A stretch of DNA of 64,000 nucleotides from a candidate division TM6 bacterium UASB124 (GTDB lineage Bacteria > Babelota > Babeliae > Babelales > RVW-14), in contig CAMDFF010000002.1 of NCBI GenBank assembly GCA_945897315.1, positions 23,992 through 87,991 of the forward strand, in the 5' to 3' direction. Positions 38,427 to 39,170 of this stretch are shown one piece after another; the stretch's first letter is position 1; each line of letters opens with the position of its first letter. Both the position numbers and the translations under genes were made by a program. The notes beneath the pieces were generated by a model. It was not told where the DNA came from and ran no database searches. It worked only from the letters and a program-made list of their open reading frames with translations.

Positions 38427-39170
38427 CTAGTAATATTTTCTAAGAGTTGCTGCGACAATGGTTAAGCTGCCAAGGCACGCCACCAAGCGCATACAGCAGT
38501 TTAATTGTTGTGTCTGGTATCGAATTTGTTCTCTTTCTTGAGCGTTGCAGATAGCTCCTTCTTGCTGTAGTAGATACACAGTTTCTAAGTCTCCTGCATC
38601 AAGTGCATAGGTAATTGCTGCGTTTCCGAAATGATTGCGATAGTTGATGTCATCCGGTCTTGCGCGTGCAATTCTTCGAATTAGTTCACGACTACCATCC
38701 CTGACTGCAAGCATAAAAAATGTTATATTTTCTACTTCTTCTATCTCAGGAACTAACCCACGAGTTATCCTTTGTGCCGTTGCATTGATGTTAAAATTTC
38801 TTGCGGGATGCAATATTGCATCAAGAAGGGCGAGATCATCGCCGCTGATAGCGCGGTGCATGAATGGCTCAAGTATAGCTTGTTGTTCTTCTTCTTCCAC
38901 TGTCATTTGTTGTTGTGCGCCTATGCCATGTCTGCACAGAGGGCATGTTGGAGAACGCTGTAACCATGCTGTGAGGCATGTGCGGTGAAAGCGATGATTG
39001 CAGGATGTTGTCGTTTGCTCTTCACCGGTTACGTACGGGTCACGACAAATGGAGCATGGTTCTGCTTCTGTAGCTGGTAGTGAGTCATTGGCTGGTGCGC
39101 TAGCAAAGCTGCTTGCAGGAATTAAAGTTGGTATGAGTATGAACAAGAGTACTTGCAATAGACGTTTCAT
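38427..39170 (-). CDS. eukaryote-like RING-H2 zinc-finger + ankyrin-repeat protein with N-terminal signal peptide and C-terminal hydrophobic tail
   Basis: CSIC-x14-CNH-x2-H-x2-C-x10-C-x2-C (CSICRDPYVTGEEQTTTSCNHRFHRTCLTAWLQRSPTCPLCRH). ANK-like repeats follow (NHFGNAAITYALDAGDLETVYLLQQEGA). Confidence 0.8.
   Translation of the reverse strand: MKRLLQVLLFILIPTLIPASSFASAPANDSLPATEAEPCSICRDPYVTGEEQTTTSCNHRFHRTCLTAWLQRSPTCPLCRHGIGAQQQMTVEEEEQQAILEPFMHRAISGDDLALLDAILHPARNFNINATAQRITRGLVPEIEEVENITFFMLAVRDGSRELIRRIARARPDDINYRNHFGNAAITYALDAGDLETVYLLQQEGAICNAQEREQIRYQTQQLNCCMRLVACLGSLTIVAATLRKYY

Follow-up and report, generated by a model that had tools for sequence, protein, structure and literature searches.

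Why does a bacterium carry, on its own chromosome, a eukaryote-type RING-H2 finger fused to ankyrin repeats, and is the protein directed at a host? The question is raised by a gene at 38427..39170 on the minus strand of a 64-kb stretch of a candidate division TM6 (Dependentiae) genome (contig CAMDFF010000002.1, assembly GCA_945897315.1), the whole of which is referred to below as the window. Dependentiae depend on protist hosts, with which they live as obligate parasites or symbionts; the phylum is widespread and almost uncultured. A preliminary description of the DNA had proposed that the gene encodes a secreted mimic of a ubiquitin ligase (E3).

Our analysis leads to a related reading, which we consider probable with some reserve, namely, that the product is aimed at the host and mimics a eukaryotic RING E3 ligase of the single-subunit type, and that it is Sec-exported, fast-evolving, and made by a protist-dwelling member of the Dependentiae. 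Observed are the domain identity, the predicted fold, the zinc-ligand and E2-contact residues, the taxonomic placement, and syntenic, rapidly diverging homologues. Several observations make an exported E3 mimic the best-supported explanation: the RING is intact and of the catalytic type, the phylum is host-dependent, the N terminus is signal-like as in other Dependentiae ankyrin proteins, the evolution of the gene resembles that of effectors, and relatives have further genes of the ubiquitin system, i.e., a deubiquitinase gene on a related contig and the set reported for Babela massiliensis. Delivery is the weak point of this reading. The gene and its parts are as follows.

38427..39170, minus strand: whole gene, ATG start, 247 amino acids (aa), four parts
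39096..39170, minus strand: signal-peptide-like segment, residues 1-25, MKRLLQVLLFILIPTLIPASSFASA
38934..39056, minus strand: RING-H2 (C3H2C3) domain, residues 39-79, with Arg80 (linchpin) directly after it
38538..38774, minus strand: ankyrin repeats, Pfam residues 133-211
38442..38489, minus strand: C-terminal hydrophobic helix, residues 228-243, RLVACLGSLTIVAATL, followed by RKYY

The open reading frame (ORF) is thus the one given in the preliminary description, and its product is composed, from the N to the C terminus, of a signal-like segment, the RING-H2 domain, ankyrin repeats, and a hydrophobic helix.

A RING-H2 domain of eukaryotic type

The set of zinc ligands is complete (C39, C42, C57, H59, H62, C65, C76, and C79), and their spacing, C-x2-C-x14-C-x-H-x2-H-x2-C-x10-C-x2-C, is a full RING-H2 signature that falls within the defining pattern applied here [C-x2-C-x(9-39)-C-x(1-3)-H-x(2-3)-H-x2-C-x(4-48)-C-x2-C]. 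The Pfam profile zf-RING_2 (PF13639) matches with an E value of 5.1e-13 and 49.5 bits, compared with a gathering cut-off of 27.3, over profile positions 3 to 44 of 44, so that the RING-H2 finger of the preliminary description is borne out by a profile as well as by its eight ligands. The native prokaryotic RING profile Prok-RING_4 (PF14447) reached only 12.3 bits (E value of 0.16), below its cut-off of 27, and the NCBIfam matches were generic and subthreshold (rad18 RING and the Legionella AnkF ankyrin family). Prok-RING_4 and its relatives are likewise binuclear treble-clef zinc domains of prokaryotes, whereas the domain in the window sits in the eukaryotic RING-H2 family.

The best sequence matches among solved structures are ZNRF3 (human; E value of 6.6e-13, gapless), RNF126, synoviolin, Praja-1, RMR1, RLIM, RNF165/Arkadia, RNF13, RNF38, and EL5, all of them active eukaryotic RING-H2 ligases. 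The alignments with the human ZNRF3, RNF126, and Praja-1 RINGs contain no gaps, and that with synoviolin has a single gap of 2 residues. Four further residues, i.e., Ile41 behind the first cysteine pair's opening Cys, Trp69 in the helix, Pro77 in the CPxC motif, and Arg80 after the last Cys, match their equivalents in ZNRF3, RNF126, synoviolin, and Praja-1. From structural work on RNF4, RNF38, and RNF165, we take the positions of Ile41, Trp69, and Pro77 to be the surface that binds the ubiquitin-conjugating enzyme (E2) and Arg80 to be the linchpin that primes the E2~ubiquitin (E2~Ub) conjugate. When the RING alone was searched, its nearest sequence neighbours were proteins of eukaryotes (Lotharella and Perilla), a protein of the symbiont Endozoicomonas, and virus-like contigs. 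Judged from profiles and alignments, the domain is a RING of the eukaryotic RING-H2 type, neither a bacterial zinc ribbon nor a native prokaryotic RING; a relationship to zinc-ribbon proteins, which the preliminary description had named as the finding that would speak against it, did not appear. With the E2-contact residues and the linchpin Arg of active RING E3s in place, the window protein has a predicted E3 activity.

Predicted structure and ankyrin repeats

An AlphaFold (AF2) model built with an alignment of 67 rows has a mean predicted local distance difference test score (pLDDT) of 80.5, with 94-98 in residues 41-80 and 91-97 in the C-terminal portion that starts at residue 151; a single-sequence model was unusable (mean pLDDT of 51). 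The RING is modelled, without zinc atoms, as a beta-beta-alpha unit with strands at residues 52-54 and 60-62 and a helix at 63-72. In Foldseek comparisons it superimposes on the RING of RNF165 (5ulk_C, from a UbcH5b~Ub complex) at 0.8 Å over 43 aligned columns and on that of Praja-1 (2l0b) at 1.1 Å. The predicted fold is accordingly of the cross-brace RING type, which is the outcome that the preliminary description had looked for in a structure prediction.

The ankyrin repeats claimed earlier are likewise supported by a profile, Ank_2 (PF12796), with an E value of 7.7e-9 and 36.4 bits (cut-off, 27.3) over residues 133-211. Canonical repeats number only about two. These are modelled confidently at residues ~150-213, with helix pairs at 151-158/161-170 and 185-192/195-203 (pLDDT, 91-97), and are preceded at ~107-145 by one or two degenerate repeats of low confidence. 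The C-terminal half superimposes on designed ankyrin repeat proteins (DARPins) at 2.2-2.4 Å over ~80 aligned columns.

A bacterial gene in a Dependentiae genome

The window is a segment of an ordinary bacterial chromosome, with genes for RpoD, DnaG, Lgt, MurG, DciA, NhaC-type antiporters, DabA/B, MlaD, and RNase HII and, in addition, GlmM, LptG, HtrA, PgsA, GrpE, type II secretion-like components, and a long glycosyltransferase cluster. Two metagenome-assembled genomes, one of them titled candidate division TM6 bacterium UASB124, have a DnaG with 85-86% identity to that of the window, and an LptG homologue is labelled Candidatus Dependentiae by NCBI. Both matches place the window in the Dependentiae, in agreement with the host-associated bacterium expected from the preliminary description. 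No genes for bacterial ubiquitin-activating (E1), ubiquitin-conjugating, or ubiquitin-like proteins were found near the RING-ankyrin gene among the genes of the window.

Two features delimit the gene.

38388..38422, no strand assigned: bidirectional intrinsic-terminator-type hairpin, common to the RING-ankyrin gene and the convergent gene 37184..38353
39171..39375, minus strand: AT-rich spacer 5' of the gene, probable promoter region, 205 nucleotides (nt), 27.8% GC versus ~42% in the window

The hairpin has a perfect 16-bp stem in which an 8-bp GC core lies between a run of six A's and a run of six T's; its folding free energy is -27.2 kcal/mol (z score of -8.8), and none of 200 shuffled sequences folded equally well. 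A consensus terminator scan did not pick it up, a miss that probably stems from pairing between the A and T runs. In the spacer, a TATAAT occurs at 39254..39249, 78 nt 5' of the ATG, and a GAAAGG lies 8 nt 5' of the ATG. The perfect bidirectional terminator and the AT-rich spacer of the preliminary description are therefore present. That the gene forms a monocistronic unit, as was also stated there, is plausible from these borders; however, the terminator scan detected none 3' of the upstream same-strand gene, and a promoter scan found promoter-like sites no more commonly than in shuffled sequence. An Rfam search of the window gave no match.

With a GC content of 0.449 and a third-codon-position GC content (GC3) of 0.351, the gene lies inside the ORF range of the window, whose genes have a mean GC of 0.423 ± 0.028 and a mean GC3 of 0.376 ± 0.047. 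A recent horizontal transfer visible in the composition was rejected on these values, which are typical of the window.

Neighbours such as Lotharella and Perilla in the RING search could also be taken as a sign that a eukaryotic or viral fragment was mis-joined into a bacterial contig. We regard such an assembly artefact as so improbable as to be negligible. A protein of identical sequence is encoded on a 161-kb contig in NCBI, ENA, and Logan and, between the same neighbours, on a 9-kb Logan contig that was assembled independently. Diverged homologues fill the corresponding slot of several further assemblies, and the gene structure, the terminator type, and the GC content are those of a bacterial gene. 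Contamination was rejected on synteny.

Homologues and the variable slot between LptG and FtsJ

In a word-indexed protein search, the window protein found only itself and thus seemed to be an orphan, a picture that was corrected by following the synteny of LptG and by an exhaustive HMMER search. Peptide-pattern scans revealed no relatives in GTDB genomes, JGI metagenomes, or IMG/VR; exact 8-residue words are too stringent for a family that evolves so fast. The HMMER search yielded 24,847 matches at E ≤ 1e-3, nearly all of them RING-only or ankyrin-only and just three with a single alignment across the RING and the ankyrin repeats; the proteins P0183 and P0184 were the only additions from a profile search. 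One of the RING-only matches is the Endozoicomonas protein P0093 (WP_373691086.1, annotated as a "RING finger domain-containing protein"), with an E value of 5.8e-14 and 43% identity over the RING.

In the relatives, the gene order GlmM, DUF502, LptG, an uncharacterised protein of 368-389 aa, a variable slot, FtsJ, HtrA, PgsA, and GrpE is maintained. The contents of the slot, together with three homologues from further contigs, are listed below.

L083 slot: 245-aa protein (P0183) with the same four parts, 25% identical to the window protein
L086 slot, 4055..4906, minus strand: two in-frame genes parted by a stop codon, each with its own signal-like start
L085 slot, 5344..5925, minus strand: ankyrin gene only, RING gene lost
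P0010 contig slot: 144-aa protein without a Pfam match
L087 slot, 10396..14824, minus strand: three leucine-rich repeat (LRR) proteins in tandem (440-483 aa); the relative is more distant
P0088: 235 aa, four-part layout, 31-32% identity, on a 2-kb ENA contig
P0152: RING-ankyrin protein without hydrophobic ends, on the giant-virus-like contig L095
P0039: 856 aa, RING-ankyrin unit present twice, on a bacterial contig with two more RING genes

The succession of signal-like segment, RING, ankyrin repeats, and hydrophobic tail is retained in P0183, P0184, and P0088 at 25-31% identity. In the L086 pair, the RING gene encodes 76 aa and ends in CPLYG-stop, with the loss of the eighth zinc ligand, and the ankyrin gene encodes 189 aa including a C-terminal hydrophobic segment. 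Because L087 carries LRR genes in the same place, the LptG-FtsJ interval acts as a slot of variable content that takes up eukaryote-like repeat proteins. The genes flanking it are 55-95% identical between the window and L083, and the slot gene is not detected by tblastn; judged from these comparisons, such divergence amid conserved flanks fits the pattern of host-interaction genes.

The split, truncated, lost, or replaced versions in the sister lineages, the very small size of the family, and the failure of the peptide scans of genomes and metagenomes to find a relative are also what would be expected of a relic that was captured from a host or a giant virus and is now decaying, effectively neutral and without a current function. 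This is very unlikely for the window copy. Its reading frame is intact with all ligands present, it has an AT-rich upstream region and a strong terminator of its own, its composition matches that of the genome, and the four-part architecture persists across lineages in which LptG is only 55% identical.

Several observations on the same locus and its relatives deserve mention. The convergent neighbour 37184..38353 (plus strand) encodes 389 aa without a Pfam match, with a signal-like N terminus, a C-terminal hydrophobic segment, and an acidic tail. All related Dependentiae contigs that were examined encode this protein at the corresponding position (38-56% identity, 95 invariant columns among four sequences), and it represents a clade-specific, uncharacterised envelope or surface protein; a metagenome scan with this family returned one locus only, which was already among those compared. 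Two paralogous AAA_14/DUF4143 ATPase genes (32006..33211 and 39376..40761, both minus strand) and a TfoX_N gene (40940..41266, minus strand) flank the region. Both paralogues and the TfoX_N gene are missing from the otherwise collinear L083 and L087, and they have the appearance of insertions specific to this lineage, placed to both sides of the slot; one ATPase and the TfoX_N gene were gained in the window's slot, which in the relatives is without them.

Contig L091 (ENA k141_647961) and the 82-kb JGI contig of P0039 contain a cluster of a 163-aa RING protein, the 856-aa double RING-ankyrin protein, and a 340-aa RING-ankyrin protein. The contig is bacterial, with GidA and Lgt near the RING genes, and the cluster looks like a local expansion of the RING-ankyrin architecture. 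On L083, a 474-aa UCH-family ubiquitin hydrolase (3161..4585, minus strand; PF00443, 49.5 bits) adjoins the RNase HII block, 8 kb from the RING-ankyrin gene of that contig. The ORF at the equivalent place in the window, 28171..29484 (437 aa), was considered as a diverged copy of this deubiquitinase and rejected, as it has no similarity to the L083 protein; it is rich in Ser, Pro, and Ala, has a signal-like start, and combines a GC content of 0.463 with a GC3 of only 0.281.

Hydrophobic ends and a possible route out of the cell

The preliminary description had also noted an N-terminal signal-like segment and a hydrophobic C-terminal tail, and both are evident. The N terminus consists of a basic n-region (K2-R3), a hydrophobic core at residues 4-18 (mean Kyte-Doolittle hydropathy of 2.39), and A-S-A at 23-25. 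Pro26 at position +1 speaks against cleavage after A25; an alternative site is presumably S-F-A/S, with cleavage after A23, and the segment may also be read as an uncleaved signal anchor. A lipoprotein was rejected, since residues 1-38 contain no Cys and hence no lipobox. Similar signal-like segments begin the L083, P0088, and L086 homologues.

At the other end, residues 229-243 form a hydrophobic stretch (mean hydropathy of 2.23) inside a continuous helix from 210 to 246 (pLDDT of ~95), which may be a membrane anchor or a tail-anchor-like segment. An equivalent hydrophobic segment with a juxtamembrane Cys before it is present in all four proteins examined (those of the window, L083, and P0088 and the L086 ankyrin protein), and this recurrence suggests that the helix is functional, possibly, if one is willing to speculate, as a membrane anchor on the side of the host.

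The window contains a single candidate export apparatus.

20975..25956, plus strand: type II secretion/type IV pilus-like cluster with GspF, a GspG pseudopilin, and four more ORFs without a Pfam match

At least two of these four ORFs start with a prepilin-type FTLIE/FTILE N terminus.

Starting from these parts, we infer export, a host location, E3 activity, and a substrate for the window protein along the following lines. The N-terminal segment would direct the protein to the Sec translocon, and it would then pass to the host side, for which outer membrane vesicles or the type II secretion-like apparatus at 20975..25956 are the candidates. There, the C-terminal helix might, speculatively, anchor it in the surface or vacuole of the parasite or, as a tail-anchored protein, in a host organelle. 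In contact with the host cytosol, the two-zinc RING-H2 domain would bind host E2~Ub, with Ile41, Trp69, and Pro77 as the E2 surface and Arg80 as the linchpin holding E2~Ub closed and reactive, and the ankyrin repeats would bind a host protein that would thereby become ubiquitinated.

A number of points weigh against this scheme. Secretion, as stated in the preliminary description, is based solely on the signal-like N terminus, and a cleaved signal in combination with the C-terminal helix by default predicts a protein that is anchored in the inner membrane and faces the periplasm rather than being released. The 64-kb window contains no type III, IV, or VI secretion system, no path by which a periplasmic protein of the Dependentiae could enter the host cytosol has, to our knowledge, been described, and an oxidising periplasm may endanger a Cys-rich zinc domain. 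The slot gene is dispensable, as follows from the split and the ligand loss in L086, the loss of the RING gene in L085, and the replacement by LRR genes in L087. Finally, the RING of P0183 in L083, which at 29.3 bits is just above the Pfam cut-off, has its Cys and His adjacent with no residue between them and lacks the Trp.

Taken at face value, the signal-like N terminus and a C-terminal stop-transfer segment describe an envelope-resident protein, Sec-exported and held in the inner membrane, whose periplasmic RING and ankyrin repeats would be zinc-stabilised interaction modules without any link to ubiquitin, serving, e.g., envelope or surface assembly. The surroundings accord with this: LptG, DUF502, GlmM, HtrA, PgsA, and the glycosyltransferases have envelope functions, the conserved convergent neighbour has a signal-like start, a C-terminal hydrophobic stretch, and an acidic tail of its own, and no effector translocon is encoded in the window. 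We nevertheless consider an envelope role unlikely. The RING retains every residue for E2 binding and activation, for which there is no known periplasmic use, the nearest relatives are found among eukaryotic E3s, on giant-virus-like contigs, and in symbionts, and, in contrast to the surrounding envelope genes, this one varies or is missing among close relatives.

The degenerate RINGs bear on a different alternative, in which the exported protein is a ligase-dead decoy or inhibitor that sequesters a host E2 through its RING or blocks a host protein through its ankyrin repeats without any transfer of ubiquitin. Such a protein would share all of the domain evidence with an active E3 mimic. P0184, like P0183, has lost the Trp and the canonical C-x-H spacing and kept the remaining protein, which suggests that the function does not strictly depend on catalysis, and the L085 lineage retains the ankyrin gene only. 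The copy in the window, however, has the linchpin Arg80 and the full E2 surface, i.e., the features that pseudo-ligases usually lose first, and for this copy a decoy is quite unlikely.

Within the preferred reading of an exported E3 mimic, the two ends of the protein can be given a more specific meaning. The putative Sec signal and the C-terminal helix, with the juxtamembrane Cys before it, could be a targeting device, by which the protein is handed on through vesicles or a type II-like apparatus and ends as a tail-anchored RING E3 in the host endoplasmic reticulum or the mitochondrial outer membrane. We mention this as an improbable variant only. C. destructans, a cultured relative, remodels host mitochondria. 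If the tail-anchor variant applied, it would mean effector delivery without a type III, IV, or VI injection system, and we know of no earlier zinc-RING E3 effector of a bacterium.

Comparison with known ubiquitin ligases and candidates

The closest systems are the eukaryotic single-subunit RING-H2 E3s, e.g., ZNRF3/RNF43, RNF13, RNF126, Praja-1, RNF165/Arkadia, synoviolin, and the plant ATL/EL5 proteins, which have the same zf-RING_2 domain with the same C3H2C3 spacing, share the conserved E2-contact Ile, Trp, and Pro and the linchpin Arg, and have solved RINGs that lie within 0.8-1.1 Å of the predicted fold. In ATL, ZNRF3, and RNF13, a hydrophobic segment is located shortly N-terminal to the RING, as in the window protein. 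The latter differs from them in being bacterial and only 247 aa long and in having its RING followed by ankyrin repeats and a hydrophobic helix, with no PA, GLD, or other accessory domains; its identity to eukaryotic RING-H2 E3s is at most 40-50% over the RING, and there is none elsewhere.

The bacterial E3 effectors known to us use U-box-like, NEL, HECT-like, or F-box solutions, and the F-box and U-box effectors of Legionella and Orientia are injected by type IV systems. Legionella AnkB, LubX, GobX, and RavN and the Orientia Ank-F-box proteins follow the same logic of a ligase module combined with a target-picking repeat domain (PMC2790608, PMC5819833). Effectors of the AnkB and LubX types rely either on an F-box, for which Skp1 and Cul1 of the host are required, or on a zinc-free U-box-like fold, whereas the window protein has a predicted zinc RING-H2 domain and a putative Sec-type signal. 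No F-box family occurred among its Pfam matches at E ≤ 1 and no U-box family among the best 25 of 28 Pfam families, all eight Cys/His ligands being present instead; the NCBIfam model T4SS_AnkF of Dot/Icm ankyrin effectors scored 22.2 bits against a cut-off of 1000, which reflects generic ankyrin similarity only. By these profile comparisons, the window protein is classified as none of the U-box, F-box, NEL, HECT-like, or Prok-RING types.

Canonical RING fingers had been called rare in bacteria in the preliminary description. This has to be qualified for protist-associated bacteria, in which candidates are not unprecedented. Among protist- and arthropod-associated bacteria, RING-finger E3 candidates were predicted earlier in Babela, in Cardinium hertigii (CAHE_p0026), and in Neochlamydia (NEX1b RING/U-box-LRR proteins), in each case, according to the portions of these reports available, as sequence-based predictions only (PMC4378268, PMC3486910, PMC4209131). 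Babela massiliensis, a TM6 bacterium and hence a member of the same phylum, was reported to encode secreted deubiquitinases in addition to an F-box protein and a RING-finger protein that is a candidate E3 (PMC4378268). The common ground of Babela, Cardinium, Neochlamydia, and Endozoicomonas is, on these partial accounts, a eukaryote-type RING in a host-associated bacterium that is proposed to act on host ubiquitination. The partner domain of NEX1b is an LRR rather than an ankyrin domain, and the likeness to the Babela, Cardinium, and NEX1b proteins is one of description; the layout of signal, RING, ankyrin repeats, and hydrophobic tail is not mentioned in the accessible portions of their accounts. 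In the cultured C. destructans, signal peptides were reported for 44% of all proteins and for 78% of the 98 ankyrin proteins, which are proposed effectors (PMC6561590).

The same pair of domains is also found in giant viruses. In the viral library, the best match by structure was to B5LWJ8 of the Feldmannia species virus, a "putative ubiquitin ligase/ankyrin repeat protein" (E value of 5e-6, 216 aligned columns), and P0152 on contig L095, which resembles nucleocytoplasmic large DNA viruses, has the RING and the ankyrin repeats in the same order and aligns over residues 35-212; it is without the signal-like N terminus and the C-terminal hydrophobic helix of the window protein. Identities of the giant-virus RING-ankyrin proteins to the window protein range from 18 to 29%. 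A RING-finger E3 candidate in a protist-associated bacterium is thus not unprecedented, given those of Babela, Cardinium, and Neochlamydia, and RING-ankyrin proteins are annotated in giant viruses.

If active, the window protein would represent a bacterium deploying an authentic eukaryotic-type zinc RING-H2 ligase, and its ankyrin domain would point to the host target. The signal-plus-anchor layout offers a handle on effector delivery in a phylum for which no type III, IV, or VI system was identified here, and the LptG-FtsJ slot with its RING-ankyrin, ankyrin-only, or LRR contents is a convenient marker of effector turnover in the clade. Being small, with a single pair of domains, and easy to express, the protein makes a clean test case for host manipulation by Dependentiae.

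Other features of the window

A LexA-like repressor gene (31225..31896, plus strand; HTH_3 and Peptidase_S24) shares 93-95% identity with the L083 and L087 versions, an unusually strong conservation given that the adjoining housekeeping genes are only 55-85% identical. The DabA/DabB-type inorganic-carbon transporter pair at 15911..19510 (minus strand; DabA, 673 bits) has GC contents of 0.355 and 0.37, far below the window mean, with a GC3 of 0.24 for DabA. Such a pair is odd for a host-dependent parasite and is possibly foreign. RpoD (1424..3877, minus strand; 817 aa) has a Lys-rich N-terminal extension of ~200-300 residues ahead of regions 1.1 and 1.2.

In and around the glycosyltransferase cluster (45228..61157), a Sulfotransfer_1 protein (61208..62173, minus strand), from a largely eukaryotic family, and a DUF2608 protein (56839..57516, minus strand) have signal-like N termini and may be further host-interaction or surface-modification genes. 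The ORF at 6676..7593 (plus strand) encodes 305 aa with a signal-like N terminus and no Pfam match; its GC content of 0.516 is discordant with a GC3 of 0.32, which suggests a Gly/Ala/Pro-rich secreted protein.

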